Origin: Candidatus Freyarchaeum deiterrae
GTDB taxonomy: Archaea; Asgardarchaeota; Jordiarchaeia; Jordiarchaeales; Jordiarchaeaceae
Assembly: GCA_037305845.1 (NCBI GenBank)
Contig: CP147778.1
Coordinates: 2,048,001-2,112,000, forward strand
Direction of reading: 5' to 3'
Length of the DNA: 64,000 bases
In this document: positions 16,201 to 61,455 of the stretch, in pieces
Position numbering within the stretch: the first letter of the stretch is position 1
Layout: each line of letters starts with the position of its first letter
Notes under the pieces: generated by a model
Told to the model about the DNA's origin: nothing
Seen by the model: the letters and a program-made list of their open reading frames with translations, nothing else
The model's database searches: none
Translations under genes and position numbers: made by a program

Positions 16201-18039
16201 TTAGAGTCCGAGTTCTGCGAGTTTCTTCTTTGTTGGGATTCCCTTTTCGTCCCAGCCTCTCGCCGTGTAGTACTCGTTAAGCATTGGTTCGAGTTCGACT
16301 ACTTGGCCTACTGTGGGACCCTTGGTGTTTTTTTCCTCTGTGAATCTTTTGGGGAGGGTGTCGTCCTTTTCTGATATGCCTTCTCTCACATTGAATAGTC
16401 TTATTAAGTTGAAAGCGCGTTCGCCTATTTTTACTAGTTCTCCTACGGTGAAGTCATATCCTGTTAGTGCGGTAAGCATTTTTGCTAATTCGTCCGGAAG
16501 ATAGGCATATAAATCATAAATGAAGCTACATGAGACCAGCGAATCGACCATGGTTTTGAAGTCCTGTAATCCTTTTATCACTGGTCCCTTGCCCTCAACT
16601 TCGTATGGTCCGGCAACCTTGTTGAAACCTAGTTCTGGTCTTGCCTGAGCCATCAACTCGACCAGCTGTGATGATGGTCTCAAGTGACATGCGCCTCGGT
16701 TTGATGTGGCATAGCCTAAACCTAGACCTTTGTAACCCTTTGGTTCGTGCATCGGTGTTTCAAGACCCTTAACATGCATCGCGAATTCTTCCGATCCCTT
16801 ACCAAGCTTCTTTGAAGCGCTTCTCACACCTTCTGAGATTGTTTTTCCTATTCCCTCTTTCATGCCCATCTTTTCTACAAGTTTCACTATCGCTTCGGGG
16901 TTTCCCCATTTTAATTCCAATCCCTCAGTTTCCTTTTTAGTTAGTATTCCTTTCTCGTAACACTCCATTGCAAACGCTACAATGTTTCCAGCCGATATGG
17001 TATCTATTCCGAGTTGATCGCAGATTATACCCGCCTTGACTATTGTTCCCAAATCGCTATTCATGCACAGCGAGCCGAAGGCGGCAACAGTTTCGTACTC
17101 CGGTCCAGCGCCAGAAGTGCCTGCAAAGGGGCCAGACTTCACTTCCACATGTCCTCTGCCACAAGCCACCGAGCATCCGTAACAAGCAAATTTTCTAGTT
17201 GTTATCTCCATTAAGGCATTTCCATCAATCTTGTCCGCGCCTTCGAAGACTCCCTCTCTGTAGTATTGTGTTGGAAGAGTACCCATCATGTTGAGGCTAG
17301 AAAGTGAGCCATTTGTGCCCTGTTTGGAGACTCCATCAACCAAAAAGTTTGTTTTTAATGCTTCACGGAATTTTTTCGAGTTTTCATTAAATGTTTCTGG
17401 GTCTTCTACTAGGATTGATTGTGTTCCACGCACTGCGATGGCTTTCAATTTTTTGGAACCCATTACCGCTCCTAGTCCACATCTGCCAGCCGCTCTATCC
17501 TTATCGTTCATGATACACGCTATCTTAACCAGTTTCTCTCCTGCGGGTCCTATTGAGGAAACTATTATTTTTTTATCTCCGAGGCTTTCTCTTATCATAT
17601 CCTCTGTTTGATAAACATCCTTACCCCAGATTTTGCTGGCGTCTTTTAGCTCCACTTCGCCGTCTTTAATCCAGAGATACACTGGCTTTTCCGATTTACC
17701 CTCAACAACTATAGCGTCAAATCCCGCGAATTTGAGTTCAGCACCCCAAAAACCTCCTGAGGTAGCCTCGCCCCAGATCCCGGTTAGTGGTGATTTAGCG
17801 GCGATAAGGTGCCTTCCCGAGGATGGAGCTCTAGTGCCTGTTAAAGGTCCTGTGGCGAAAACCAATTTATTCTCCGGACCCAGGGGATCAATTCTTGGTT
17901 TAAGCTCATCATAAAGTATTTTCGCTGCCAGCCCTGATCCCCCTAAATATCTCTTTTGAGTTTCCTCTTTTAGTTTCTCGGTAGTTATCTTCGCCTTTGT
18001 GAGGTCTAATCTCAGAATTTTTTCGAGATATCCGCCCAT
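16201..18039 (-). CDS. aor: Aldehyde:ferredoxin oxidoreductase family (tungstopterin) enzyme
   Basis: KSPLTG, AGRCGLGAVMGSKKLKAI, CYGCSVACG, GPEYET, GIDTISAG and RGACHLR motifs. Confidence 0.93.
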   Translation of the reverse strand: MGGYLEKILRLDLTKAKITTEKLKEETQKRYLGGSGLAAKILYDELKPRIDPLGPENKLVFATGPLTGTRAPSSGRHLIAAKSPLTGIWGEATSGGFWGAELKFAGFDAIVVEGKSEKPVYLWIKDGEVELKDASKIWGKDVYQTEDMIRESLGDKKIIVSSIGPAGEKLVKIACIMNDKDRAAGRCGLGAVMGSKKLKAIAVRGTQSILVEDPETFNENSKKFREALKTNFLVDGVSKQGTNGSLSSLNMMGTLPTQYYREGVFEGADKIDGNALMEITTRKFACYGCSVACGRGHVEVKSGPFAGTSGAGPEYETVAAFGSLCMNSDLGTIVKAGIICDQLGIDTISAGNIVAFAMECYEKGILTKKETEGLELKWGNPEAIVKLVEKMGMKEGIGKTISEGVRSASKKLGKGSEEFAMHVKGLETPMHEPKGYKGLGLGYATSNRGACHLRPSSQLVELMAQARPELGFNKVAGPYEVEGKGPVIKGLQDFKTMVDSLVSCSFIYDLYAYLPDELAKMLTALTGYDFTVGELVKIGERAFNLIRLFNVREGISEKDDTLPKRFTEEKNTKGPTVGQVVELEPMLNEYYTARGWDEKGIPTKKKLAELGL

Positions 18040-18264
18040 AACAATCTTCTCCTAAGATTAACTTCTCTTAGTTTTCATCACGTTTAGATGTTGGTCTCTC
18101 TTTAACCCTACTTACTGCTTCTATGAAAACTTCTAATCAAGTTGAATTGACGATTTCTTATCCCACATATAATTTTGTTGAATTCAAAATAGATACACTA
18201 AGTTCCTTATTATTAGCGAATTTTAATAGAAAAATTATGGATGTCGCTTGTTTTGTGGCGGGTT

Positions 18265-18450
18265 TTAAATTTTCCATCCTCGCATTTGTTGACCTCTGGG
18301 GGATTGGAACTCATGTTTACATTTGGGGCATTTTATATAGCCGCAGTCTCCTAGAGCCGCGCTGGGGCATGGACCGCAGGCGAATGTTCTTGAGTATGAG
18401 AGGTTGAAGGTGAACCCGCATTTGGGACAGGTTACGTTTCCTGAACTCAT
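18265..18450 (-). CDS. Small Cys-rich (Zn-ribbon/Fe-S) protein
   Basis: 61 aa with CPKC...CGPCP...C...CPKCKH. GGAGG SD upstream; same strand as, and downstream of, the blaI-protease pair. Confidence 0.75.
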   Translation of the reverse strand: MSSGNVTCPKCGFTFNLSYSRTFACGPCPSAALGDCGYIKCPKCKHEFQSPRGQQMRGWKI

Positions 18451-18537
18451 TTAAGCGCCTCCATTGAAACTACTTTTTTGTCGTATAATAAGGGTTTCGA
18501 AAAGGAAAGAAGCCAATAAAGAGTTATAACCCTGGTC

Positions 18538-19572
18538 TTACAAAAACTCTCTAATTTCAACTAGGCGCATTAATCTCTTGAGTCTTTCCTCAAGGGGTGG
18601 ATGCTTCTTAAGCAAGAATTTGTAACTCTTGAAAAGGCACAGAACCTTCTGCTTCACCAGTGAGCCGCCAGAGTCTTCAGCGTTCTCAGCTATTTTGATT
18701 AGGGCTGATGCGAGGGCTTCGGGCTTCTTGGTGAAGCGGGCGCAGATCCTATCCGCCAGAAATTCACGTTCACAGTAAATCGCAGACTCTAAAAAGTATC
18801 CCAGAGGATTGTAAAACGTAACTGCTCGAAGGAAAGAGGATACTCTTCTGACAGAGCTATCCCTATTCATTATGTGAGCTAGTTCGTGCCCCAGGCAGGC
18901 TTCCAACTCTTCTGCATCCAGTAATTCAATCAAACCGGTTGAAACAACTATTAAGGGTTTTTTCTTTCTCTCATCTACTGTGAATACTATAGGTCTTTCA
19001 AGATTCAAAACTAGGATTTCTGGGGCAACCACATTCATCAGTTGAACAAGATTTGCAGCAATGTCTCTTATCTGGTCATGCTCTTCACTTTTTTCGCATG
19101 ATGTAAGGAATTTGGATGTGAGGGCTTCGTTGCGATTGCCAACAAGCCTTAATCTTTTGAATGTGAAAATAAATGCAAAACACACAATGATTAACTGTAG
19201 GGCACAGTACGTCAGAAACTCTGTAGCAGAACTGATTTGAAACCCTGGGTCAACAGGGCTATCTGAAATGAGCAAGAAAACTTGAGTAACTAAAAACCTT
19301 AATGGAATAATAATAGTTGGCAGCAAAAGAGTAAATAACCAAATCTTGGTCTTTACAGCGTACGCATCTTCCTTTACTACTTTGCAAACAACAAGAGATA
19401 ATACGGGCATCAAGAGAACTAAAGCCAACAAAAATGATTGCAACTCCTCCAAAGAGGCAGTAAAATGGTTTATAGTAAACAGGATTGTAGCATTAGCTGG
19501 AGAAGTCAAGGAATCGGTTATAAATCTGATAATCGCATCTATAATCCTAAAAATATCAAAAAATATATTCAT
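18538..19572 (-). CDS. Membrane zinc metalloprotease, M56/M48 family (BlaR1-like, no penicillin-binding domain)
   Basis: N-terminal TM helices, VVSTGLIELL, GHELAH (HExxH), EREFLAD, LASALIK, HPPLEERL. Starts 2 nt after the blaI stop. Confidence 0.88.
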   Translation of the reverse strand: MNIFFDIFRIIDAIIRFITDSLTSPANATILFTINHFTASLEELQSFLLALVLLMPVLSLVVCKVVKEDAYAVKTKIWLFTLLLPTIIIPLRFLVTQVFLLISDSPVDPGFQISSATEFLTYCALQLIIVCFAFIFTFKRLRLVGNRNEALTSKFLTSCEKSEEHDQIRDIAANLVQLMNVVAPEILVLNLERPIVFTVDERKKKPLIVVSTGLIELLDAEELEACLGHELAHIMNRDSSVRRVSSFLRAVTFYNPLGYFLESAIYCEREFLADRICARFTKKPEALASALIKIAENAEDSGGSLVKQKVLCLFKSYKFLLKKHPPLEERLKRLMRLVEIREFL

Positions 19573-19574
19573 AA

Positions 19575-20015
19575 CTAGGACCCGCTATGACTCTTTATCT
19601 TTTTCAACTGTTTTTTAATTTCCTCTATCACTTCCGGATTATTTATATTTAAGTTTTCGAGCAAAAACATTATAGTAGGCTCCTCAAAGGATTCAAAAAG
19701 TCCACTCAAAACATGCCTCGCAACCAACTCATCAAATTCCTTCCTGGTCAAGGCAGGAGAATAAACGTAGAATACTCCTTTCTCCCTAATCAGTTCACGC
19801 TTCAAGAATTCTTTCTTATACAAACGGTCCAGAATCGTAGCCACAGTGTTAAACGCCACAGGCCGCCTACATTTTATATCTTCATGAATGTCTCGAACAG
19901 AAGCTTTTTTAAGCCTCCAAACGGTCTCCATAACTTCCGATTCCAGATCACCTAAAACCTTCGACAGATCCTTTTCATGGGGCTTAAATTCACAAACATT
20001 AGGCTTACCGGCCAT
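19575..20015 (-). CDS. BlaI/MecI/CopY family transcriptional repressor
   Basis: LGDLESEVMETVW, SVRDIHE, AFNTVATILDRLYKK, YVYSPALTRKEF. Confidence 0.92.
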   Translation of the reverse strand: MAGKPNVCEFKPHEKDLSKVLGDLESEVMETVWRLKKASVRDIHEDIKCRRPVAFNTVATILDRLYKKEFLKRELIREKGVFYVYSPALTRKEFDELVARHVLSGLFESFEEPTIMFLLENLNINNPEVIEEIKKQLKKIKSHSGS

Positions 20016-34268: not shown

Positions 34269-35609
34269 TTAAAGTACTGGCAGATACTTTGACCACTCCC
34301 AGCTTGTTACCGTCATAGTGAATTCTTTCCATTCTTCCTTTTTTCCTTCGATGAATCTAGTGAAAACATGTTCTCCTAATGCTTCTTTGGCTATCGCACT
34401 TTTTTCTGTAAGTTCTATTGCCTCGCCAAGTGATCCTGGGAGTTGATCGATGTAAAACTCTTTTAATTTTGCTTCATCAAATTCATAAACATCTTCGTCC
34501 ACTGGGTCTGGTGGTTCTATCTTATTTTTCATTCCTTCAAGACCCGCCTTGAGCATCACTGCGAATGCTAGATAGGGATTACATGAAGAGTCTGGACACC
34601 GAAGCTCTACTCTTAGAGATTTTTCTCTTCCTAGGAAGTATTCGGGAACCCTTATCAAAGCCGATCTGTTTCTTCGCCCCCAGCAGATGTAGACTGGTGC
34701 CTCATATCCCGGAACTAGTCTTTTGTAGGAGTTTACTGTAGGTGCTAATATTGATATTATCTCTTTTATGTATTTTAGCTGACCGCCGATGAAGTAAAGT
34801 GCGTTTTCAGAAAGGCTGTATTTTCCGCTTTTATCAAAGAAAGCGTTTTTATCCTTGTTCCAAAGACTCTCATGAACGTGCATCCCAGAGCCATTTATCC
34901 CGAAGAGTGGCTTTGGCATAAATGATGCAAAGAGGTTATGCTTTTTGGCGATGGCCTTTAATACATATTTATAAGTTAATACGGCATCCGCAACGCGTAA
35001 AGCATCACCATACCTGAAGTCGATTTCATGCTGTCCGGGCGCCACCTCATGGTGCCCCATCTCAACCTGTATCCCCATCTCTCCAAGAGTAGCTGCCGCT
35101 TCTCCACGAACATCGAACGCTAAGTCTAGAGGCGCGAGATCGAAGTAGCCTCCTTTGTCTTGAGGCACAGGCTCTAGTCCGTCTAATTGTTTGAATAGGA
35201 AGAATTCTAATTCTGGTCCTACTAAGTAATTAAATCCCATTTTCTTTGCTTCATCTAGGCTTCTTTTTAGAATGTTTCTAGGGTCTCCTTCAAACGGTTT
35301 ACCCTCAGGTCGATACACATCACAAAAAATTGTGGCCACTTTTTTATCTGTTATTCTTGGAGATAGTATCGTGAAGGATGAAGGATCAGGAATTAATCTC
35401 ATGTCGCTTTCATAGATTCTTGCGAATCCCTCTACCGAGGATCCGTCAAAGCCTACACCGTTATCTAAAGCTTCCTCTATTTCTCTAGGAGGAATTGCGC
35501 AAGTTTTTGGGGTGCCGAATATATCTACAAATTGTAAGGTTATGAGACTTATTTCATTTGAACTCACTTTCTCAATTATCTGTTGCTTCAGTTCTTCTTT
35601 GGATTGCAT
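34269..35609 (-). CDS. glnA: Glutamine synthetase type I (alpha-like)
   Basis: FDGSSVEG, GPELEFF, HHEVAPGQHEI, FMPKP..NGSGMH, SYKRLVPGYEAP, NRSALIRVP and ELRCPD motifs. Confidence 0.94.
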   Translation of the reverse strand: MQSKEELKQQIIEKVSSNEISLITLQFVDIFGTPKTCAIPPREIEEALDNGVGFDGSSVEGFARIYESDMRLIPDPSSFTILSPRITDKKVATIFCDVYRPEGKPFEGDPRNILKRSLDEAKKMGFNYLVGPELEFFLFKQLDGLEPVPQDKGGYFDLAPLDLAFDVRGEAAATLGEMGIQVEMGHHEVAPGQHEIDFRYGDALRVADAVLTYKYVLKAIAKKHNLFASFMPKPLFGINGSGMHVHESLWNKDKNAFFDKSGKYSLSENALYFIGGQLKYIKEIISILAPTVNSYKRLVPGYEAPVYICWGRRNRSALIRVPEYFLGREKSLRVELRCPDSSCNPYLAFAVMLKAGLEGMKNKIEPPDPVDEDVYEFDEAKLKEFYIDQLPGSLGEAIELTEKSAIAKEALGEHVFTRFIEGKKEEWKEFTMTVTSWEWSKYLPVL

Positions 35610-35630
35610 TTCTTCCACCTTTATACTAGA

Positions 35631-35870: not shown

Positions 35871-36314
35871 TTATAAGAGTTCAAAATTTTCTTTTATAGT
35901 GTTTAAAACCACATGCGTGTTGGCTCTTTGCACGTTAGGGATTGCCAATATACTTTTTGTGAAGTTACTAAGCTCATTTCTATCTCTAAACTTAGCAATG
36001 ATAATTGCATCGACCTCTCCGGTTACATCGTACACCGCGCAAGTGGAGGGATTTTTAGAGATCTCTTTGTCCGCATCAAGCATTTTGCCTTGAGAAACAG
36101 TAATTTCGGTTACCACCGTTAGGTCAAATCCGAGTTTTTCATGATCTAAAACAGCGGTGTAACCTTTAATTACTCCCTCTTCTTCCATCTTTTTAGTTCT
36201 GGATACAACAGTTCCCACAGATACACCAATTTTTTTCGCTATCTCTCTATGAGATTGTCTTGAGTTTTCGAGTATTTCTTTTAGTATTTTCTTATCGATG
36301 TCATCTATAGTCAA
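35871..36314 (-). CDS. Lrp/AsnC family transcriptional regulator
   Basis: IDDIDKKIL...SRQSHREIAKKIGVSVGTV HTH and VYDVTGEVD RAM domain. Confidence 0.93.
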   Translation of the reverse strand: MTIDDIDKKILKEILENSRQSHREIAKKIGVSVGTVVSRTKKMEEEGVIKGYTAVLDHEKLGFDLTVVTEITVSQGKMLDADKEISKNPSTCAVYDVTGEVDAIIIAKFRDRNELSNFTKSILAIPNVQRANTHVVLNTIKENFELL

Positions 36315-50286: not shown

Positions 50287-51753
50287 ATGCCAAAAGCTAA
50301 TATCAGATCCAGTGAGGATTTGAATAGAAAAATTTTAGAGACGATAAAGGAAGATCAAGTTAGATGGATAGATCTACAATTTCTGGATGTACCCGGCTTT
50401 CTTCAACACATCACGGTGCCTTCGCACACGTTAGATGAGGCGAGTTTCATCGATGGCATAGGTAAGCTAGACGGTTCCTCGATTAAAGGCTTCAAGGAAA
50501 TCTACGAGTCTGACATGCTTCTGATACCGGACTCAAGCACTTTTGCAATGATTCCATGGACGCAACAGAAAACTGCAAGAATGTTCACAGACCTGAGAGA
50601 AGCGTACGGCGGCCCAAGATTCTCAAGAGACCCACGCTACATCGCGCAGCAAGCAGAAGAGGCGGTCAAAAAAGCAGGATTTGATGTTTCCTATTGGGGA
50701 CCCGAGGCGGAGTACTTTGTATTCGACTCGGTGAAACTGCTTCCGAGCTATCTGTCTGCAAGAGATTCATGGGCTGGTACAGGTTACGCCATCGAATCTA
50801 AGGAAGCAATCTGGTCACAGGGTGGCATAAATTTTCCCATAAGAAATAAAGAGGGTTACTACCCTGCACCGCCTGAGGATACGCTTCAAGATTACCGTTC
50901 AGAAGTATGTTCGATTTTGGAAGATAACTTTGGTATATCTCTTGATGCTCATCACCATGAGGTAGCCACTGCTGGGCAAATAGAAATCGACATGGAATAC
51001 GATGAACTGTTGAAAATGGCAGACAATCTGGTTTCCTACAAATTTGTTGCAAAGAATGTTGCCTATATGAGAAAGATGATAGCTACATTTATGCCAAAGC
51101 CAATTTTTGGAGACAACGCAAGCGGAATGCACGTACATCAGAGCTTGTGGAAGGGTGGAAAAAACGTATTTTTCGACCCAGACGATGATTACGCAGAAAT
51201 AAGTCAAGTTTGCAGGTATTACGCAGGCGGCTTAATGGAACACAGTAGAGCTTTGGCAGCTATTGTTGCGCCAACGACAAATTCCTACAAGCGATTGGTG
51301 CCAGGATATGAGGCGCCGGTCTATGTTGCTTGGTCAAAGAGAAACCGCTCTGCCAATGTAAGAGTGCCTGTGTACCATAAGGGTGGCGAGTATGCAATGA
51401 AAACCAAGCGTGTTGAATTCCGTCCTCCTGACACAAGCTGCAATCCATACTACGCCTTTGGTGCAATGTTAGCCGCTGGTCTGGATGGTATAAAAAAGAA
51501 AACCGACCCTGGCGATCCAACGGATGAAAACATTTATCACCTAACCCCGAGTAAAAGGAAAGAGTTAGGCATAAAAGAGCTTCCTGGTTCGCTGAAAGAG
51601 GCGTTAGAAGAACTCAGCGGTGACAGAGAGTTTCTGGAGCCGATATTCCCAAGCGATTTAATAGATACTTGGATTGAGTTAAAGATGGAAGAGTATACGC
51701 AGAATTCAATCAGACCAACGCCATATGAATTCTACAGGTACTTTGATATTTAA
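50287..51753 (+). CDS. glnA: Glutamine synthetase type I (second copy, beta-like insertion)
   Basis: LDGSSIKGF, GPEAEYF, HHHEVATAGQ, FMPKP..DNASGMH, SYKRLVPGYEAP, NRSANVRVP, EFRPPD and ENIYHL motifs. Confidence 0.95.
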   Translation: MPKANIRSSEDLNRKILETIKEDQVRWIDLQFLDVPGFLQHITVPSHTLDEASFIDGIGKLDGSSIKGFKEIYESDMLLIPDSSTFAMIPWTQQKTARMFTDLREAYGGPRFSRDPRYIAQQAEEAVKKAGFDVSYWGPEAEYFVFDSVKLLPSYLSARDSWAGTGYAIESKEAIWSQGGINFPIRNKEGYYPAPPEDTLQDYRSEVCSILEDNFGISLDAHHHEVATAGQIEIDMEYDELLKMADNLVSYKFVAKNVAYMRKMIATFMPKPIFGDNASGMHVHQSLWKGGKNVFFDPDDDYAEISQVCRYYAGGLMEHSRALAAIVAPTTNSYKRLVPGYEAPVYVAWSKRNRSANVRVPVYHKGGEYAMKTKRVEFRPPDTSCNPYYAFGAMLAAGLDGIKKKTDPGDPTDENIYHLTPSKRKELGIKELPGSLKEALEELSGDREFLEPIFPSDLIDTWIELKMEEYTQNSIRPTPYEFYRYFDI

Positions 51754-52113
51754 AAGAGAACGGTGAAAAATAGGGTCTACAAAGTTACAAGTGACGAAGA
51801 ATAAGTTTATGTTTCCAGAGAAAGGGTACTCGATGGTATAAACGTTTTGGGATTAGCCTTTTAGAGAGCTGTATGTCTTTTTCCTCTCCATCCTTTCTTT
51901 ATTTGAACTCATTGCAGTTTGTCCTGATACTATTTGAGAAGGCTTAACTTTGGCGGGCGTTCCTTTATTTCCTATGGTAACTCTGTTACAAAGAAATGAG
52001 GTAGCTACTAAAAATCAGAATAGAAAAACCGCAAGCTTTTTTAGTTTCTTTTGTTTTTGTTTTCGAAATCCGCGGAAAAATATGCTTCGTCTGTAATTTT
52101 TATAGGTGGTTTA

Positions 52114-53409
52114 ATGAAGTTTGCATTGTTTTTGGGATGTTTGATTCCTTTCAGGCTTCCTTCATTAGAAAGCACTGCTAGAAAAGTGTTAAACCGATTA
52201 GGTGTGGAACTGGAGGACATATCGGAATTCTCCTGCTGTCCGAACACTATAGCAGTGGAGGCTGTGAATGATGAATATTGGTACTTTCTAGCAGCCAGAA
52301 ATCTTGCACTGGCGGAAATGAGGGGGCTTGATATTCTGTGTCTCTGCAGTGGTTGTTCTGAGAGCCTTAAGAAGGCAAACTTTGAGTTGAAAAAGAATCC
52401 TGCTTTAAGGGAGAGAGTAAACTCTAAACTGTCAGAGATAGGTTTAAAGTACAATGGGACAGTTGAAGTAAAACATTATGTGGAAACCTTAATCGAAATG
52501 GGGTTAGACACTATAAGAGAGAAAATTGTTTATCCCTTACGAGGTTTGAAGGTGGCTTGCCATTATGGTTGTCATCTTCTTAGACCCAGCGAAGTAATTC
52601 TCTTTGATAATCCGTTGAACCCAGTATCTCTGGATAAGTTAGTTCAAGTTCTGGGAGCGGATACAGTTGACTATGAAAATAAAATGCTTTGCTGCGGTAG
52701 CGGTCTTAGTTTAGTGGAATCAAAAGAGGCGCTACAGTTATCTAAGAAGAAACTGGACGAGGTCAAGAAAAAGGCTGACTGCTTGGTTGTTGTTTGTCCT
52801 TCATGTTTCCAACAGTATGATGCGGCTCAGAAGCTGATGGTAGAAAAGCCCAATGTTCCAGTATTCTATTACCTAGAATTACTGGGACTAGCGCTGGGGA
52901 TGGAGCCCGAAAGCTTAGGGCTATCCACTCACAAAATAAGTGTTTCAGACCTGGTAAATAGAATTAATGAACGTGTAGAACCATTAAAGGATTTGTCCGA
53001 AATTTTTGATCTAAACGTACTCAAAAACTGTGCCAGATGCGGCGCTTGTTCTTCTAGTTGCCCGGTCGCTGATGAGAACTTCAACCCTCATCAGATAATT
53101 AAAATGTTGATGGAGGGAAAGATGAAAGAAGTTTTGGATGCAGGAGAATTCTGGCGCTGCACCGATTGTTATACTTGTCACGAGCTTTGCCCCCAAAATA
53201 TGGGACTTGTAGAAATTTTCTCAAAATTAAAAAGTATAGTCTCGGAAAAAAAGCTCATTCCAGAAGATATAAAAAACCAGGTAGCCAATGTTCTGAACAA
53301 TGGTTTTGCTATCCCACCATCACAAGCGCTAAGAAAACGTTTTGATCTTCCCGAACCGCCCAAGCCGAACATAGAAAAGATCAAGAAGTTGGTAAAAAGC
53401 GATGTCTAA
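52114..53409 (+). CDS. Heterodisulfide reductase subunit B-subunit C fusion (HdrB-HdrC)
   Basis: HdrB part: LFLGCLIP, FSCCP, CLCSGC, CHYGCHLLRP, LCCGSG, VCPSCFQQYD. HdrC part: CARCGACSSSCP and WRCTDCYTCHELCPQ. GGTGG SD before ATG 52114. Confidence 0.88.
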   Translation: MKFALFLGCLIPFRLPSLESTARKVLNRLGVELEDISEFSCCPNTIAVEAVNDEYWYFLAARNLALAEMRGLDILCLCSGCSESLKKANFELKKNPALRERVNSKLSEIGLKYNGTVEVKHYVETLIEMGLDTIREKIVYPLRGLKVACHYGCHLLRPSEVILFDNPLNPVSLDKLVQVLGADTVDYENKMLCCGSGLSLVESKEALQLSKKKLDEVKKKADCLVVVCPSCFQQYDAAQKLMVEKPNVPVFYYLELLGLALGMEPESLGLSTHKISVSDLVNRINERVEPLKDLSEIFDLNVLKNCARCGACSSSCPVADENFNPHQIIKMLMEGKMKEVLDAGEFWRCTDCYTCHELCPQNMGLVEIFSKLKSIVSEKKLIPEDIKNQVANVLNNGFAIPPSQALRKRFDLPEPPKPNIEKIKKLVKSDV

Positions 53410-54463
53410 AGTAATAGATGGATGTGGTATAAGTGGAATTATCAGTACGAAGAAAAATCTGATTCCCGGAAGTGAAATAGTTACTTCCATAGATTCAATG
53501 AACTTTAGATATAATGGGCTGGGCGGAGGATTTGCGGGTTACGGCATTTACCCAGATTACAAGGATTATTACGCATTTCACATGAATTTTGAGAATCAGG
53601 AAGCAAAAAATAAAGCAGAAAACTTCTTTTACGAGAGTTTGAGCGTTATAGACGATGAAGAGATACCGATAAGAAAATCTGAACTCATAGACGACACCAA
53701 ATCTATAAGCTGGCGTTATTTCGTAGGACCCCCAAAAGACATGGAAAATATTGATGACTACATCGTTAAGGTTGTTATGCACGTAAATGAGAATATTCCA
53801 GGAGCCCACGTTTTTTCGAGTGGAAAAAATATGGGTGTTTTCAAGGCGGTAGGCTACCCTAAAGCGGTAGCGGATTATTTCCGAATAGAAGATTATTCCG
53901 CGTACATTTGGACAGCTCACGGAAGATACCCAACCAACACCCCCGGATGGTGGGGTGGAGCTCACCCCTTTAACATACTAGACTGGTCAGTGGTTCACAA
54001 CGGAGAGCTTAGTTCTTATGGTACTAATAAGAATTTCTTGGAAATGTGGGGATACAAGTGCACCTTGCTCACTGACACCGAGGTTTTAGCATACTTATTT
54101 GATCTGCTAGTGAGAAGACATAAGATCCCTGTAGAACTTGCATGTAATGTTCTGACTCCCAAGTTTTGGAGCGAGCTTAAAACTGATGATAGTTTGAAAG
54201 GGAAGGCTCTTAAGGCATTAAGAATGACCTATGGAGGAGCAATTGTTAATGGACCATTCAGCATAATTGTGGCAACTAACAATTTCATGTTTGGATTAAC
54301 GGATAGGGTTAAGCTCCGCCCATTAATAGCCGCGAGAAAGGATGATCGCCTCTACCTTGCGAGTGAAGAGTGCGCTATAAGAAGCGTTTGCGAAAACCCA
54401 GACCTTGTTTGGGCTCCTAGGGGCGGAGAACAAGTGATTGCATATATACAAGAGGTGACCTAA
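53402..54463 (+). CDS. Glutamate synthase, glutamine amidotransferase domain subunit (GltB1)
   Basis: CGISG, RYNGLGGG, SSGKNMGVFK, AHGRYPTNTPGWWGGAHPF, VHNGEL, TDTEV and DRVKLRP motifs. Confidence 0.92.
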   Translation: MSKVIDGCGISGIISTKKNLIPGSEIVTSIDSMNFRYNGLGGGFAGYGIYPDYKDYYAFHMNFENQEAKNKAENFFYESLSVIDDEEIPIRKSELIDDTKSISWRYFVGPPKDMENIDDYIVKVVMHVNENIPGAHVFSSGKNMGVFKAVGYPKAVADYFRIEDYSAYIWTAHGRYPTNTPGWWGGAHPFNILDWSVVHNGELSSYGTNKNFLEMWGYKCTLLTDTEVLAYLFDLLVRRHKIPVELACNVLTPKFWSELKTDDSLKGKALKALRMTYGGAIVNGPFSIIVATNNFMFGLTDRVKLRPLIAARKDDRLYLASEECAIRSVCENPDLVWAPRGGEQVIAYIQEVT

Positions 54464-55956
54464 TGTTTCCCCCTCAATTTAGCGTGGTAATCGATAGTGA
54501 CAAGTGTGAAAAGTGCAAGAGATGCACAATAAATTGTTCTTTTGAAGCCCTATCCTACGATGAGGAGGAGGATAGAATAGTTGCTAAAGACCAAAAATGT
54601 GTTGCATGCTTAAGATGCGCCAGTAAATGTCCCAATGGTGCCATAACGATTAAGAAAAACGAAATCACTTTCTCTCCACATCCAACTTGGACTCCTGAAA
54701 TAAGATCAGACATAATTAAACAAGCTGAAACTGGTGGCATGATAATCGCAGGCATGGGAAACGATGTGAACTATCCCTGCTTGTTTGACCAAATAGTTAT
54801 CGATGCCTGCCAGGTAACAAACCCTTCTATAGATCCCTTAAGGGAACCGATAGAAGTCGACACCTATCTTGGTAAAAAATCCAAACAATTAAAAATCAAC
54901 GAAGATTTCAGTTTGGAAACTCAAATAACGCCCAACATTATGATTAATACCCCTATAATCATAGGTCATGTATCATATGGTGCAATCAGCCTCAACGCCC
55001 ACAAAGCCTTAGCCATGGCGGCAAGTAAAGTGGGAACCCTAATGGGATCCGGCGAAGGGGGATTACACCCCGACCTCTATGAATTCGGAGACCATATAAT
55101 CGTACAGGTGGCTTCGGGACGCTTCGGGGTTTATTCCAAGTATTTAGATGTTGGCGCCGCCGTAGAAATTAAAATAGGGCAGGGTGCAAAACCCGGGATA
55201 GGAGGCCATTTACCAGGAGAGAAGGTTACTGAAGACATTGCGGAAACTAGAATGATACCGATTCACACAGACGCCCTGTCGCCAGCTCCCCATCACGATA
55301 TTTACTCAATAGAAGATTTGTCTCAGCTAATCTACGCCCTTAAAGAAGAAACCGATTACACGAAACCAGTTTTCGTTAAGATAGCGGCGGTTCACAACAG
55401 CGCAGCCATTGCCAGCGGAATCGCCCGGGCTGGTGCAGACGCAATAACGATTGACGGTTTCAGAGGGGGAACTGGAGCTGCTCCTCAAATAGTTAGAAAC
55501 CATTTGGGTATACCTATAGAGGTCGCTCTTGCTAGTGTGGACAAGAGGTTGCGAGACGAGGGAATAAGAAACGAGGTCTCACTCATTGCCAGCGGAAGCA
55601 TCAGATTTGCTGCAGATGTTGTCAAGGCCATAGCTCTCGGAGCTGACGCTGTAGCAATAGTCACGCCAACCCTCATAGCAATGGGTTGCACGGTGTGTCA
55701 ACAATGTTATAGAGGGACATGCGCCTGGGGAATATGTACAACCAGACCAGATCTGGCTAGGAGACTTGATCCAGAAGTCGCTTCCAGAAGAGTTTACAAC
55801 TTGTTCAGCGCTTGGACCATGGAGATTAAGGAAGTCTTAGGAGCCTTGGGAATGAATGCGATTGAAAGCCTCAGATACAACAGAGAACGTTTGAGAGGAA
55901 TCGGAATAGACCAAAAGACCCTAGAAATCTTGGGAATTAAAGCGGCGGGTGAGTAA
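54463..55956 (+). CDS. Glutamate synthase, FMN-binding subunit with N-terminal 2x[4Fe-4S] (GltB2)
   Basis: Two CxxCxxCxxxC motifs, SYGAIS, GEGG, QVASGRFGV, EIKIGQGAKPGIGGHLPGEKV, SPAPHHDIYSIEDL and GCTVCQQC motifs. Confidence 0.94.
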   Translation: MFPPQFSVVIDSDKCEKCKRCTINCSFEALSYDEEEDRIVAKDQKCVACLRCASKCPNGAITIKKNEITFSPHPTWTPEIRSDIIKQAETGGMIIAGMGNDVNYPCLFDQIVIDACQVTNPSIDPLREPIEVDTYLGKKSKQLKINEDFSLETQITPNIMINTPIIIGHVSYGAISLNAHKALAMAASKVGTLMGSGEGGLHPDLYEFGDHIIVQVASGRFGVYSKYLDVGAAVEIKIGQGAKPGIGGHLPGEKVTEDIAETRMIPIHTDALSPAPHHDIYSIEDLSQLIYALKEETDYTKPVFVKIAAVHNSAAIASGIARAGADAITIDGFRGGTGAAPQIVRNHLGIPIEVALASVDKRLRDEGIRNEVSLIASGSIRFAADVVKAIALGADAVAIVTPTLIAMGCTVCQQCYRGTCAWGICTTRPDLARRLDPEVASRRVYNLFSAWTMEIKEVLGALGMNAIESLRYNRERLRGIGIDQKTLEILGIKAAGE

Positions 55957-56692
55957 AATGCAAATAGACGCTAAGGGACTTAACTATAAAGAGTTAAACA
56001 AGAAATTAAAAGAGATTGTACTAAAAGACGACACCAAAGAGATAGAAATAGTAAATGTTAACGGACACCGCTACATAGGAACTGGACTGGAAAATAGTAA
56101 CGTAATTATCAGGTTGCATGGTATTCCCGGGAACGATTTGGCCGCCTTCATGAACGGCGCCTCCATATTTGTTTACGGAAATGCTGAAGACGGTGTGGGA
56201 AACACCATGAACGCGGGATTAGTGGTCATCCACGGAGACGCAAGAGATGTAGTAGGTTACTCCATGAGAGAAGGAAAAATTTTTATTAAAGGAAATGTCG
56301 GCTACCGGGCAGGTATCCATATGAAAGCCTATAAGAACCGTTTTCCAAGCATAGTGGTTGGGGGAAAAGCTGAAGATTTTCTTGGGGAATACATGGCTGG
56401 CGGAATAATAGTTATTCTGAACCGTAATAACGAGGAATACCCCGTGGGAAAATTCACTGCAACCGGTATACATGGGGGAACGATATTCGTTAGAGGTAAA
56501 GTTTCAGAAGAAACTTTGGGGATTGGTGCCGAAATAGATGTTCCCAACGAGGAAGACCTAAAACTTCTGAATGAATTAATTTCTGAATTTTCCTTTTATT
56601 TCCAAGTTAGCGAAGATTTAGCAGGTTCAGAATTTACCAAAATTCACTCGAAAAGTCACCGCCCATTTGGAAAACTTTACATCTTGGAGTAG
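55949..56692 (+). CDS. Glutamate synthase, GXGXG domain subunit (GltB3)
   Basis: NVNGHRYIG, GIPGNDL, GNTMNAG, GYRAGIHMK and GEYMAGG motifs. Confidence 0.92.
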   Translation: MSKMQIDAKGLNYKELNKKLKEIVLKDDTKEIEIVNVNGHRYIGTGLENSNVIIRLHGIPGNDLAAFMNGASIFVYGNAEDGVGNTMNAGLVVIHGDARDVVGYSMREGKIFIKGNVGYRAGIHMKAYKNRFPSIVVGGKAEDFLGEYMAGGIIVILNRNNEEYPVGKFTATGIHGGTIFVRGKVSEETLGIGAEIDVPNEEDLKLLNELISEFSFYFQVSEDLAGSEFTKIHSKSHRPFGKLYILE

Positions 56693-56781: not shown

Positions 56782-57033
56782 TTATTTTTGAATCTTTCTG
56801 GGAAAAATTGTATCCATGCATAAGTAGCATTTAATATGTTTCACGCTTGGCAGAGTACGTGTTTTAGCAAGCCATTCATATGCTGAATTATATTCAGGAA
56901 GACTCACAATAGTTACTAGATCATGTTCTCCCGCAATCACGTAAATATCTCTAACTGCCTCGTCGCCCTCTAAAGTTTCTAAAATCTCTTTTTCTGCTCC
57001 AGGGGCTATGTCAAAAATCATAAATGCCAACAT
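56782..57033 (-). CDS. Stand-alone Lrp/AsnC ligand-binding domain protein
   Basis: 83 aa, IYVIAGEHDLV pattern, no HTH; GGAG SD. Confidence 0.8.
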   Translation of the reverse strand: MLAFMIFDIAPGAEKEILETLEGDEAVRDIYVIAGEHDLVTIVSLPEYNSAYEWLAKTRTLPSVKHIKCYLCMDTIFPRKIQK

Positions 57034-57049
57034 TTCTCCTCATCACCCT

Positions 57050-57304
57050 CTACTCATTTATCAAAGCTGATTTCCAAACTTTAACCACTGGCAGGGTTTT
57101 GGTTTTCACTATTTCTCGGAGCTTTCTTATATTCATAACAACATCGTAAATTCTCTTGAGACTATCAGCAGCAATAACTGCAATAATATCATGATCTCCT
57201 GTAACCAAATGGGACTCCTTTACTTCCGGCGCGGCGTGAATCTTCTCGAAAACCGCTTCCTCAGTTCCGGGTATAATATCTAATTCCAGCAAAAGAAAAT
57301 ACAT
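57050..57304 (-). CDS. Stand-alone Lrp/AsnC ligand-binding domain protein
   Basis: 84 aa, HLVTGDHDII and IRKLREIVKTKTL patterns; GAGGAG SD. Confidence 0.83.
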   Translation of the reverse strand: MYFLLLELDIIPGTEEAVFEKIHAAPEVKESHLVTGDHDIIAVIAADSLKRIYDVVMNIRKLREIVKTKTLPVVKVWKSALINE

Positions 57305-58436: not shown

Positions 58437-59897
58437 TCACAACTTATTTTTATTTAAGTACTCCTTGTATTCAAACATCTTGCGAAGACATTTAGCCGCT
58501 CTCCTTGGGTCCACATATGCTGGGACGCTCCGGCTTACGAGCATTTCGGTAAACTCTGTGTCTCTTGTGATACAGAAAACTGGTTTTTTATATTTCTCCA
58601 CCATTTTTGCTGTATCAATGGCTATTTCGTGCATGAATTGCTTCCACCTCTGCGTCATTGTTTCAATCATTTGTTCATCCACTTTTCCAGTATTTTTCCA
58701 ACCCTTGATTATTGTTGAGAGGTTACCAGCGAAAAACTGAATGATTAATGCGTCAGCCGCATCGTTTTCAAGTAGAACATTTCCACTCCACGTGAGCAAC
58801 TCAATGTTGTATGTCGCAACAAGATCCACGGGATTACCGTGGCTCCAATAGGGAGGGGCCTTTTCGCTTATCTTATCAATAATGCTCTGAGATAGTTTAG
58901 AAACCTCCAAGCCATACTCCTCACACGCATCAGCCGCAAGTACTCCCCAGCCTCCTCCGGGGGTTATTATACCCACCCTTTTACCCTGTGGTAGGGCTCC
59001 CATTGAAAAGGCTACTGCATAGTCTATGAGCTCTTCCGTGCTCTCACACGTGATAATATTGTTCTGCTTCGCAACTGCGTTAAAAATTTGGTTTGATCCA
59101 GCGATGGAAGATGTGTGGGAGTGTGCCGCTTTAGCACCAGCACTGGTTCTGCCGGCTTTGACAACTATGAATGGTTTTCTTTTGGTTAACTCCTTTGTGA
59201 CCCTTAAAAACTTTTCACCGTTACGAATACCCTCTATGAAGGCTGCCACTACCTTCGTGTCCTTGTCGTATGTAAAATACTCTAAGAAATCATCCAGCTT
59301 CAGAACCGCTTCGTTTCCACTACTAACAAATTTGGAAACCCCGCCGCCCATGTCCGCCATTGCTCCCATAAGCACCAGACCCACAGTACCAGATTGACTC
59401 ACCATAGAAATATTTCCTCTAGTTGGAAGATTGCGGGTCATCAGGGTGTTTAAACCAGTGGAAGTATTAACAATCCCCATGCAGTTGGGACCTACTACCG
59501 CTATTTCATTTTCCCGCGCTATTCGAACAATCTCCTCCTGCATTTTCTTACCCTCCTCTCCCGCCTCACCGAAGCCAGCGGTGATTATTATACATGCTTT
59601 TACCCCCTTCTCAGCGCATTCTTTGAAGACTTGAAGAACATGCTCTGCGGGAATAACAATAACCGCTAAATCTACTTCTTGAGGTATATCCGTAATCTTT
59701 GGGTAAGCCTTAAGTTCAGAGACCTTTTGAACGTTAGGATTTACCGGGAAAATCTCACCCTTAAATCCGCTGAAAATCAGGTTACCCATAACATTATTTC
59801 CTATCTTATTCGGAACGTCCGTAGCTCCGATTACCGCAACGTTTCTAGGCTCAAAGAGCGGTTTCAGGGCATGGTCGCTTCTCATAGGGTTCACCAC
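58437..59897 (-). CDS. Acyl-CoA synthetase (NDP-forming) alpha subunit
   Basis: VAVIGA, ITAGFGE, GPNCMG, SQSGT, SSGNEA, AAHSHTSSIAGS (phospho-His) and NPVDL motifs. Confidence 0.92.
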   Translation of the reverse strand: MVNPMRSDHALKPLFEPRNVAVIGATDVPNKIGNNVMGNLIFSGFKGEIFPVNPNVQKVSELKAYPKITDIPQEVDLAVIVIPAEHVLQVFKECAEKGVKACIIITAGFGEAGEEGKKMQEEIVRIARENEIAVVGPNCMGIVNTSTGLNTLMTRNLPTRGNISMVSQSGTVGLVLMGAMADMGGGVSKFVSSGNEAVLKLDDFLEYFTYDKDTKVVAAFIEGIRNGEKFLRVTKELTKRKPFIVVKAGRTSAGAKAAHSHTSSIAGSNQIFNAVAKQNNIITCESTEELIDYAVAFSMGALPQGKRVGIITPGGGWGVLAADACEEYGLEVSKLSQSIIDKISEKAPPYWSHGNPVDLVATYNIELLTWSGNVLLENDAADALIIQFFAGNLSTIIKGWKNTGKVDEQMIETMTQRWKQFMHEIAIDTAKMVEKYKKPVFCITRDTEFTEMLVSRSVPAYVDPRRAAKCLRKMFEYKEYLNKNKL

Positions 59898-59994
59898 AAA
59901 GGAGCTTATACAACTACGTTATAAATGCCTTTTCAACAATGAAATTAAATCAATATAAAACAAAACTGTAGAATCCCTACATAACATAATTTAT

Positions 59995-61455
59995 TTATTT
60001 TTCTGCCTCTGCGTTCCTCTCCCGGTACTCCTGGTACTCCACCATTTTTGCAATACACTTTACCGCCCTGATAGGACTTCCAAAAACTGGGACACTACTA
60101 TTCCTCAGAAAATTAGCTATTTCAGCGTCTCGGGTAACGAAGAAAACAGGTTTCCTGTACTTCTCATATATACCCAAAGCAATATCCGCAAAAGATTTCA
60201 CAAAGCCCTTGTACACCTCTTTAATCATCCCCATTTCTTCTTCGCGGAAAAGCGATAGCTTAGATAGGGGATACAATGCGCTTGAAAAGTCATACGCAAA
60301 ATAAGCATATAGCAATACATCAACAATATCCTTCTCAAAAAGAATCTCACAGCAGAACCTAAAGAGGTTCGTGTCTATGCTGGAGGTGAGGTCAATCGGA
60401 TTTCTTTTACTCCAGTAACTCGGCGCCCTCTCACTGATTTTGCTCACCACATCTGCTGGTAACTCAGGTACTTCCAGTCCATATTCCTCACAAGCATCAG
60501 CTGAGAGCACCGCCCATCCTCCGGCACCGCTCAAGATTCCTACTCTTCTTCCTCTTGGTAAAGGACACTTGGAGAAAGCTGTTGAATAATCTACGAGTTC
60601 ATCACTGTTATCTGCTAATGTGATTCCCGTCTGTTTTGCAATCGCGCGGAAAACCCGAATTGAGCCAGCTACTGAACTCGTGTGAGAATGAGCCGCCTTA
60701 GAACCCGCTTTGGTTTTTCCCACCTTAATTGCTATAAAGGGTTTCCTCTTGGTTAGTTCCCTCGCTACTTCAATAAACCGTCTACCATCACGAGCCTCCT
60801 CAATAAAAGCAACAACCACTCCCGCTTCGGGATCTTCACCATAATATTCCAAGTAGTCCTCTAATCTTAAGACCGCTTCATTCCCACTACTAACAAATTT
60901 TGTAAAACCAGCACCAGCCTTGGATATAGAATCCATAAGCACCATACCAAGAGTTCCGCTCTGAGAAACCATAGCAACATTTCCCTTACTGGGATAAAGA
61001 GGACTCATTAATGCAATGAGATTTCTAGAAGCACTGTAAACACCCATACAGTTCGGGCCAACTATTTTCATTCCGCTCCTTCGACCAATCTCCGAAATCA
61101 CATCCTGCATTTCCGCCCCTTCTCCACCAACCTCCCTAAAACCTGCAGTTATCATAATACATGCCCTAACCCCCTTCTTCTCACAATCCCTTAAAACCCC
61201 AAGAGCAACAGAAGCGGGAACCGTGATAACCACCAGATCAACGTCTCTCGGAATTGACGTAACACTGGGATAAGTTTTGAGCCCGAAAACTTTATCCTCA
61301 TTCGGATTCACCGGGTAGACTTCACCCTGATACTCCCCGGAAAGAATTGCAGCCAGAGTAGCCCCCCCAATTTTTCCAAAATTGTTAGAGGCACCAACCA
61401 CGGCAACACTTCTCGGATTGAACAAACTTTCAAGACCACGCTCTTGCTTGCTCAT
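59995..61455 (-). CDS. Acyl-CoA synthetase (NDP-forming) alpha subunit, tandem paralog
   Basis: Same motif set: GPNCMG, SQSGT, AAHSHTSSVAGS, NPIDL. Confidence 0.92.
   Translation of the reverse strand: MSKQERGLESLFNPRSVAVVGASNNFGKIGGATLAAILSGEYQGEVYPVNPNEDKVFGLKTYPSVTSIPRDVDLVVITVPASVALGVLRDCEKKGVRACIMITAGFREVGGEGAEMQDVISEIGRRSGMKIVGPNCMGVYSASRNLIALMSPLYPSKGNVAMVSQSGTLGMVLMDSISKAGAGFTKFVSSGNEAVLRLEDYLEYYGEDPEAGVVVAFIEEARDGRRFIEVARELTKRKPFIAIKVGKTKAGSKAAHSHTSSVAGSIRVFRAIAKQTGITLADNSDELVDYSTAFSKCPLPRGRRVGILSGAGGWAVLSADACEEYGLEVPELPADVVSKISERAPSYWSKRNPIDLTSSIDTNLFRFCCEILFEKDIVDVLLYAYFAYDFSSALYPLSKLSLFREEEMGMIKEVYKGFVKSFADIALGIYEKYRKPVFFVTRDAEIANFLRNSSVPVFGSPIRAVKCIAKMVEYQEYRERNAEAEK

Follow-up and report, generated by a model that had tools for sequence, protein, structure and literature searches.

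A conserved HdrB-HdrC fusion leads a split glutamate synthase operon in an Asgard archaeon, with dihydrolipoyl carriers as candidate electron donors

Glutamate synthases (GOGATs) are known to draw electrons from NADH, NADPH or ferredoxin, and F420 has been proposed as a further donor. Thiol:fumarate reductase (TfrAB) supplies a biosynthetic flavoenzyme with thiol electrons from coenzyme M (HS-CoM) and coenzyme B (HS-CoB) via a CCG/Fe-S subunit, TfrB, in which the Fe-S domains come first and the CCG domain last. Among proteins of the heterodisulfide reductase (Hdr) type, HdrB2 and HdrB2C2 oxidize thiols without HdrA (PMC5296606), the disulfide of HdrB outside methanogens, Freyarchaeia included, has been described as unidentified (PMC11291895, PMC9723716), and a GcvH-HdrB link has been suggested for a hydrogenase cluster (PMC9723716). 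Here, an operon of Candidatus Freyarchaeum deiterrae is described in which an HdrB-HdrC fusion gene (hdrBC) precedes the three genes of a split glutamate synthase (gltB1, gltB2 and gltB3). It lies in a window of 64,000 nt (the whole stretch of DNA analysed: CP147778.1, positions 2,048,001-2,112,000, forward strand) of a genome that consists of a single contig of 3,576,204 bp. Coordinates are window positions unless marked otherwise, and the elements of the operon are as follows:

52104..52109, + strand: Shine-Dalgarno-like AGGTGG, preceding the ATG at 52114
52114-53409, + strand: hdrB-hdrC fusion gene, 431 amino acids (aa), ATG start; Pfam CCG twice plus a 4Fe-4S dicluster
52114..52968, + strand: HdrB part of the fusion; below the TIGR03288 cut-off, without the CCPAPG and CCGAGG(G) loops
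52969..53409, + strand: HdrC domain (aa ~286-431); 2x[4Fe-4S] relay with C306, 309, 312, 316, 349, 352, 355 and 359
53402..54463, + strand: gltB1, class II glutamine amidotransferase; PF00310 (GATase_2), nucleophile Cys8, 7-aa pro-peptide
54463..55956, + strand: gltB2; N-terminal 2x[4Fe-4S] ferredoxin domain (Fer4), flavin mononucleotide (FMN) synthase barrel (PF01645 Glu_synthase, E=4e-137), C-terminal four-Cys motif (C409, 412, 415, 420)
55949..56692, + strand: gltB3, GXGXG beta-helix domain; PF01493

The four open reading frames, their overlaps and a fusion with intact CCG and ferredoxin cysteines had been called by the original prediction, made from the DNA letters, and were all recovered when reading frames and sequence were checked. 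The overlaps measure 8, 1 and 8 nt for fusion/gltB1, gltB1/gltB2 and gltB2/gltB3, and the cysteines number 10 in the HdrB and 8 in the HdrC part. Its gene inventory also held: the operon has no gene for GltD (NAD(P)H), FrhB (F420) or a free ferredoxin, and there is no full hdrA in the window, several hdrABC operons being located elsewhere in the host genome. Over the 3,576,204 bp searched, this operon is the sole gltB set of the host. A TTG at 52051 was considered as an upstream start of the fusion and rejected, because homologues have the same length as the version starting at ATG 52114. A scan for sigma-70 promoters and terminators stayed at chance level, the sigma-70 model being unsuited to archaea.

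GltB1, GltB2 and GltB3 are predicted to catalyse glutamine- and 2-oxoglutarate-dependent glutamate formation. An amidotransferase with N-terminal Cys, an FMN barrel with C-terminal Fe-S cysteines and a GXGXG domain, the features of a glutamate synthase, are all present; the best sequence and fold matches of GltB2 are the glutamate synthases 1EA0, 2VDC and 1OFD, and its cluster cysteines are invariant in 66 homologues. Of 96 GltB1 homologues, 91 have the nucleophile Cys motif, and a Cys can still be seen in the sequence of four of the five that do not. As the first subunit of the N-methylglutamate synthase MgsABC is without a catalytic N-terminal Cys, which is conserved in GltB1, an identity with MgsABC was rejected. 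The HdrB half is 41% identical to 5ODC_B, with a predicted model that superposes at 1.6 Å, and it carries the two CCG motifs with five Cys each plus His154 that mark the HdrB/CCG superfamily. In an alignment of 66 family members, the 10 HdrB cysteines, His154 and the 8 HdrC cysteines show no or almost no variation.

The linkage of hdrBC to gltB is widely conserved. An unbiased sample was drawn of 80 metagenome loci chosen by the fusion alone, 72 of which have enough flank to be evaluated; gltB lies within 3 kb of the fusion at all 72, thus the linkage is not due to chance. The same four genes are found in Asgard families f1, f2, f9 and f16 (fusion identity 38-85%; the closest homologues carry the labels Freyarchaeota or Jordarchaeia), and beyond the Asgard archaea the fusion is present in Ca. 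Methanoperedens, Bacillota and Armatimonadota. Conserved linkage, which the original prediction had proposed to check in gene neighbourhoods, is thus confirmed for loci with the fusion, and the system extends far past the Asgard archaea, which that prediction had not noticed. The HdrB phylogeny it had also called for places the fusions in one clade apart from canonical HdrB (FastTree support 0.94; one solo HdrB is nested), and the HdrBC and GltB2 distances are correlated (r=0.91). A single-protein search of genome contigs gave two close loci only, a plasmid search did not find the full-length fusion, and no longer fusions joining HdrBC to GltB or lipoyl domains were found at E<=1e-60, the last being weak evidence. 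Genes for glnA, amtB/glnK and ANTAR regulators flank many of the loci.

Module swaps are the strongest argument for HdrBC as the electron input. In Asgard families f16, f28 and f23, the slot of the fusion is taken by an NAD(P)H oxidoreductase beside a 58-60%-identical GltB2, and in one further genome (G514) by FrhB. The linkage thus holds in one direction only: beside this GltB core there may instead be an NAD(P)H oxidoreductase, FrhB or no input module, and HdrBC is therefore one of several interchangeable modules. HdrBC very probably serves as the electron input of this glutamate synthase, and it most likely oxidizes a thiol. Its physical association with GltB is putative; a complex prediction for GltB2 plus HdrBC scored 0.23 against a mark of 0.32, which is no answer and was used neither way.

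Other gltB arrangements were also encountered. One genome (contig G047:C4) has a pair of gltB1-3 operons separated by 26 kb, of which one begins with HdrBC and the other with an NAD(P)H oxidoreductase (L059, L064). A third Asgard GltB type, in which GltB1 and GltB3 are fused and GltB2 is duplicated, is followed by etfB-etfA (L084, L085, L092, L093), which suggests electron-transfer flavoprotein as another input module for that type. Further Asgard loci (L079-L081, L086-L088, L096) combine hdrA (or an hdrA-mvhD fusion), frhB-like, gltB3-like and gltB2-like genes, often with hdrC-hdrB, and they have no gltB1 glutaminase; their GltB2-like proteins are 37-39% identical to that of the window, and the system may be an FMN enzyme coupled to F420 and Hdr, with ammonia or some other compound as its substrate.

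Lipoate genes are found inside the operon in Bacillota. Four loci (L105, L263 of Syntrophomonadaceae, L267 and L269) have the order gltB3-lpdA-lipoyl carrier-hdrBC-gltB1-gltB2, and L270 has gltB1-gltB2-gltB3-lpdA-lipB-lipA-carrier-hdrBC, by its gene content a predicted complete pathway of lipoyl assembly, reduction and use. The carrier is an acidic lipoyl domain of 76-85 aa with the lipoyl lysine, encoded directly 5′ of hdrBC, and the dihydrolipoyl dehydrogenase of these operons scores above its cut-off. A metagenome locus (L171) has the order gltB1-2-3-lpdA-lipA-hdrBC. The fusions of all these loci are only 49-77% identical to one another, and the gene orders differ. Two archaeal loci of Methanoperedens' class (L197, L198) have hdrBC-gltB1-2-3-lplA-hdrC-hdrB-hdrA-gcvH; lplA also lies 3′ of gltB3 in L253 and L254. 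Over 107 related loci, no thiol-system genes other than lipoate genes recur near the operon. The parts of a lipoyl-dependent system (a carrier with its lysine, lipoylation enzymes and a reductase) are thus together within the L270 operon and scattered in the genome of the window archaeon. The carrier is predicted to be lipoylated and turned over by HdrB.

Lipoyl carriers also accompany Hdr genes away from gltB. At L245 (G047:C6, 2877-8162), hdrA-gcvH-hdrC-hdrB, with a non-canonical HdrB, adjoins glcD/glcF-like genes, and at L189 (G304, 17098-19925) a GcvH-like gene lies directly 3′ of flxAB-like genes on a contig that also has hdrA close by.

The gene order predicts that genomes with the fusion also encode lipoyl carriers, and this prediction was passed. 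Among 301 genomes of Methanoperedens' class (49 with the fusion and 252 without), GcvH-like genes were found in 49 of 49 fusion carriers and 11 of 252 others, and LipS2 in 38 of 49 and 10 of 252, respectively (Fisher test for GcvH, p about 5e-46, which is overstated as the genomes are related). Methanogens are normally without GcvH, and the control M. acetivorans was negative for it. Since glycine decarboxylase was detected in only 4 of the 301 genomes, most carriers are without a glycine-cleavage partner. Genomes of the anaerobic methanotroph class (loci L186, L199, L204, L205, L246) encode paired GcvH-like proteins, LipS1/S2 and ligases, with glycine decarboxylase not found, and sometimes a CoA-disulfide-reductase-like flavoprotein. 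In two genomes of anaerobic methanotrophic archaea (ANME) a gene of this flavoprotein type is beside gcvH, and other genomes encode canonical HdrABC as well. Some GcvH-family gene was present in all 22 other carriers tested, such genes being common in those groups. Operon content and co-occurrence together point to a protein-bound dihydrolipoyl dithiol as the donor.

The window archaeon has lipoate machinery of its own, including one of several candidate carriers within the window:

27957..28388, + strand: GcvH-like lipoyl carrier with lipoyl lysine (ETGKW type), outside the operon

Its genome encodes two LplA-like lipoate ligases, LipS1, the glycine-cleavage P and T proteins and five GcvH-family matches, one of which adjoins a lipoate ligase. 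A dihydrolipoyl dehydrogenase (PRK06292-type; genome positions 451950-453347) scores above the NF004947 cut-off; the other LpdA candidate of the host proved to be MerA.

In the proposed mechanism, electrons would pass in the order NADH, LpdA, dihydrolipoyl carrier, HdrB, HdrC and GltB2. The carrier would be reduced by lipoamide dehydrogenase with NAD(P)H, by glycine cleavage or by another Hdr complex; its dithiol would be oxidized at the two non-cubane clusters of HdrB, where the two-electron donor is split into single electrons, and these would travel via HdrC and the Fe-S centres of GltB2 (its ferredoxin domain and its cluster) to FMN. The FMN would then reduce 2-iminoglutarate, itself formed from 2-oxoglutarate and glutamine-derived ammonia. 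The potential of the acceptor couple is about -70 mV by our own estimate. With lipoamide at E0′ -0.29 V (PMC6067878) and this estimate, a driving force of about -42 kJ/mol is computed. It is very improbable that the system instead runs in reverse, with glutamate oxidized and electrons placed onto a disulfide, or that the genes are merely co-regulated. Glutamate oxidation has a potential of about -140 mV, and its electrons would have to move uphill to lipoamide at -290 mV. Amino acids are degraded by Asgard archaea (PMC11291895) and HdrB normally reduces disulfides, both of which would suit reversal, yet the glutaminase Cys of GltB1 is kept, nitrogen-assimilation neighbours (glnA, amtB/glnK and ANTAR regulators) surround many loci, two glutamate dehydrogenases are available to the host for catabolism, and the gene overlaps are kept over two domains of life.

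Overall, a lipoyl-fed HdrBC glutamate synthase, in which the fusion is the input and the thiol is the dihydrolipoyl moiety borne by a small carrier protein, is given a probability of about 0.62. The lipoyl donor is likely for the Bacillota operons, whereas for the window archaeon it is favoured with less assurance: a lipoyl route is available there and a CoM route may be too, and as lipoate machinery and CoM synthesis are both encoded, the donor of the host is less certain. It is also somewhat probable that this constitutes a new donor class common to Asgard archaea and anaerobic methanotrophs as well as to several phyla of anaerobic bacteria, with a free lipoyl protein acting purely as an electron carrier.

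Several points weigh against a lipoyl donor. The window operon has no lipoate gene, and of the 72 metagenome loci that could be evaluated just three (L132, L151, L171) have one; the Bacillota lipoate operons may descend from one recruitment; and the carrier type differs by lineage, an E2-type domain in Bacillota versus a GcvH-like protein in archaea. The 49 of 49 carriers with GcvH sit in two or few clades and are not 49 independent events, many Lokiarchaeia-like carriers have only canonical GcvH, and one genome of 94% completeness (G009) has the operon and no LpdA match. Five genomes have gltB1-3 without the fusion, and four of these have no adjacent input module, therefore the GltB core can be fed otherwise. 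Finally, canonical CoM/CoB-type hdrCBA adjoins some archaeal operons, and the host encodes comD, comE, comA and comB:

1777478-1780454 (genome position): comD-comE-comA-comB cluster of the host genome (G000, L260), an Asgard archaeon in which mcrA was not found

These genes bear on HS-CoM plus HS-CoB as the donor, the pair used by thiol:fumarate reductase, which the original prediction had cited when it assigned HdrBC to the electron-input slot. The slot and probable thiol oxidation are upheld by the conserved linkage, the module swaps, the intact ligands and a closed genome without HdrA, whereas CoM/CoB as a family-wide rule was not supported. In 5ODR, the CoM sulfonate is bound by the backbone of Gly46 and Gly198, and CoB by Arg14, Arg201 and Arg240 (PMC13261682). 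The CCPAPG/CCGAGG loops that hold the two glycines were found in none of 106 fusions, while the canonical HdrB of the same operons and of the host genome has both. Against a TIGR03288 cut-off of 345.15, the window fusion scores 287.9 and the Methanoperedens fusion 291.6, versus 470-471 for canonical neighbours, and the fusion appears to fall outside the CoM/CoB-specific HdrB family. Moreover, of 21 carriers searched, 17 gave no comA and 7 no comE, among them genomes of 98-100% completeness and a closed Armatimonadota genome with the operon (G301), in which comA, comE and hdrA were not found and LpdA and GcvH are present; several near-complete carriers are thus without known CoM synthesis. CoM/CoB as the general donor of the family is unlikely.

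A narrower role for HS-CoM plus HS-CoB, at least in the window archaeon and ANME, is also improbable. It would fit the com cluster of the host (comA and comE are found in four same-order relatives tested as well), the presence of both coenzymes in Methanoperedens and a reaction that is favourable at E0′ -281 mV for CoM/CoB (PMC12054007). CoB-binding Arg14 is kept in 64 of 66 family members and an Arg201-like residue in 42 of 66; the window HdrB lacks the latter, and canonical neighbours, too, are without Arg240. An argument from loss of all CoB-binding arginines was dropped, the Arg201-like residue being often kept and Arg240 non-diagnostic. HdrB2 of M. acetivorans is divergent in sequence yet uses CoM/CoB (PMC5296606), so the loss of the loops is not decisive. 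The lpdA, lipB, lipA and carrier genes inside the operon would, however, be unexplained by this donor.

The same lipoate genes bear on two further alternatives. HdrBC might accept a broad range of thiols, or a different thiol in each lineage: lipoyl in Bacillota and another low-molecular-weight or protein thiol in the window archaeon. Pocket residues vary widely over the family, donor genes are absent at most loci, methanogen Hdr takes several non-native disulfides (PMC13261682) and the host has a CoA-disulfide-reductase-like flavoprotein; this is nevertheless doubtful, as lipoate genes are the only recurring thiol genes in the 107 loci, in bacteria and archaea alike. Still less probable is a fusion that uses no thiol and, as a mere Fe-S wire, docks on an HdrA from another locus or is fed by ferredoxin. 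Although several HdrA are encoded in the host genome and in those of many carriers, HdrB2C2 accepts ferredoxin electrons (PMC5296606) and gltB1-3 occur without an input gene in some genomes, HdrA is missing from the matches in closed G301, GltB2 has a ferredoxin domain of its own, the thiol-reactive cluster ligands and His154 are strictly conserved, and the in-operon lipoate genes would again find no explanation.

Upstream of the operon lies a gene for a glutamine supplier:

50287..51753, + strand: glnA, type I glutamine synthetase; TIGR00653, 575.6 bits versus a cut-off of 429

The gap between glnA and the fusion is 360 nt, and co-transcription with the hdrBC-gltB operon is a candidate only; a glnA homologue is present again at 26 of the 107 related loci. 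A second glutamine synthetase gene (34269-35618, - strand), 40% identical to glnA, is beside an Lrp/AsnC regulator (35871-36314, - strand), and the corresponding gene of relatives often lies next to their hdrBC-gltB operon. Convergent to gltB3 are two small AsnC-type ligand-binding proteins (56782-57304, - strand), followed by two acyl-CoA synthetase (ADP-forming) alpha-like genes in tandem (58437-61455, - strand). At 20197-27624, a four-gene cassette (two secreted/membrane proteins, an ABC ATPase and a permease) is tandemly duplicated.

The HdrBC glutamate synthase is real, conserved and apparently undescribed: no paper was found that describes an HdrBC-linked or lipoate-linked glutamate synthase or joins glutamate synthase, HdrBC and lipoate, subscription papers being outside the search. 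If true, a lipoyl donor would be of a class new to this central enzyme of nitrogen assimilation and would give lipoic acid a role not described before; lipoamide would be the long-unknown substrate of non-methanogen HdrB, and the GcvH-like proteins and LipS1/S2 kept in anaerobic methanotrophs without glycine cleavage would be explained. The Bacillota operons L270 and L263 appear soluble and self-contained, and are predicted to form glutamate at the expense of NADH, provided that the carrier is lipoylated.

Compared with known systems, the Ntn glutaminase, the FMN barrel with Fe-S cluster and the GXGXG domain are shared with GltB/GltD NAD(P)H-GOGAT (1EA0, 2VDC, 6S6S) and ferredoxin-GOGAT (1LLW, 1OFD), but the window system has three split genes, an extra 2x[4Fe-4S] on GltB2, no GltD and an HdrB-HdrC input. 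The methanogen FGltS(I)/(II), putatively F420-dependent (PMC3448663, PMC3087415, PMC9012536), likewise has a split GltB with a dedicated, swappable input gene, FrhB/FdhB-like there and a CCG-family thiol-oxidizing module here. Neither the GltD-like input gene of NAD(P)H-GOGAT nor the FrhB-like one of FGltS is in the operon, and relatives with the same core have one. Methanogen HdrBC (5ODC) and M. acetivorans HdrB2C2 (PMC5296606) have the same fold, cluster ligands and His154; the fusion differs in its fused B-then-C order, separate clade, missing CoM/CoB-pocket loops, scores below family cut-offs and tie to gltB rather than hdrA. The hdrA partner of the bifurcating HdrABC complex is absent from the operon and was not found in G301, hdrA being located elsewhere in the host. 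The match of the fusion to TfrAB is weak (NF004898, 81.7 bits versus a cut-off of 385). The hallmark of sHdr-LbpA systems is an shdrC1B1AHC2B2 cluster with sulfurtransferases and LbpA, and no genes of this type recur in the 107 loci. In both sHdr-LbpA (PMC6067878) and the GcvH/HdrB proposal for the Ehe cluster of Culexarchaeia (PMC9723716), Hdr-like genes are accompanied by those for a free lipoyl carrier and its assembly enzymes, and lipoamide is the proposed HdrB partner; the former serves sulfur oxidation and the latter hydrogenase-linked catabolism, whereas the window system would serve nitrogen assimilation, without HdrA. By analogy, the system may thus be likened to FGltS and GltD-type synthases in architecture, to thiol:fumarate reductase in logic and to sHdr-LbpA in its use of a free lipoyl protein.

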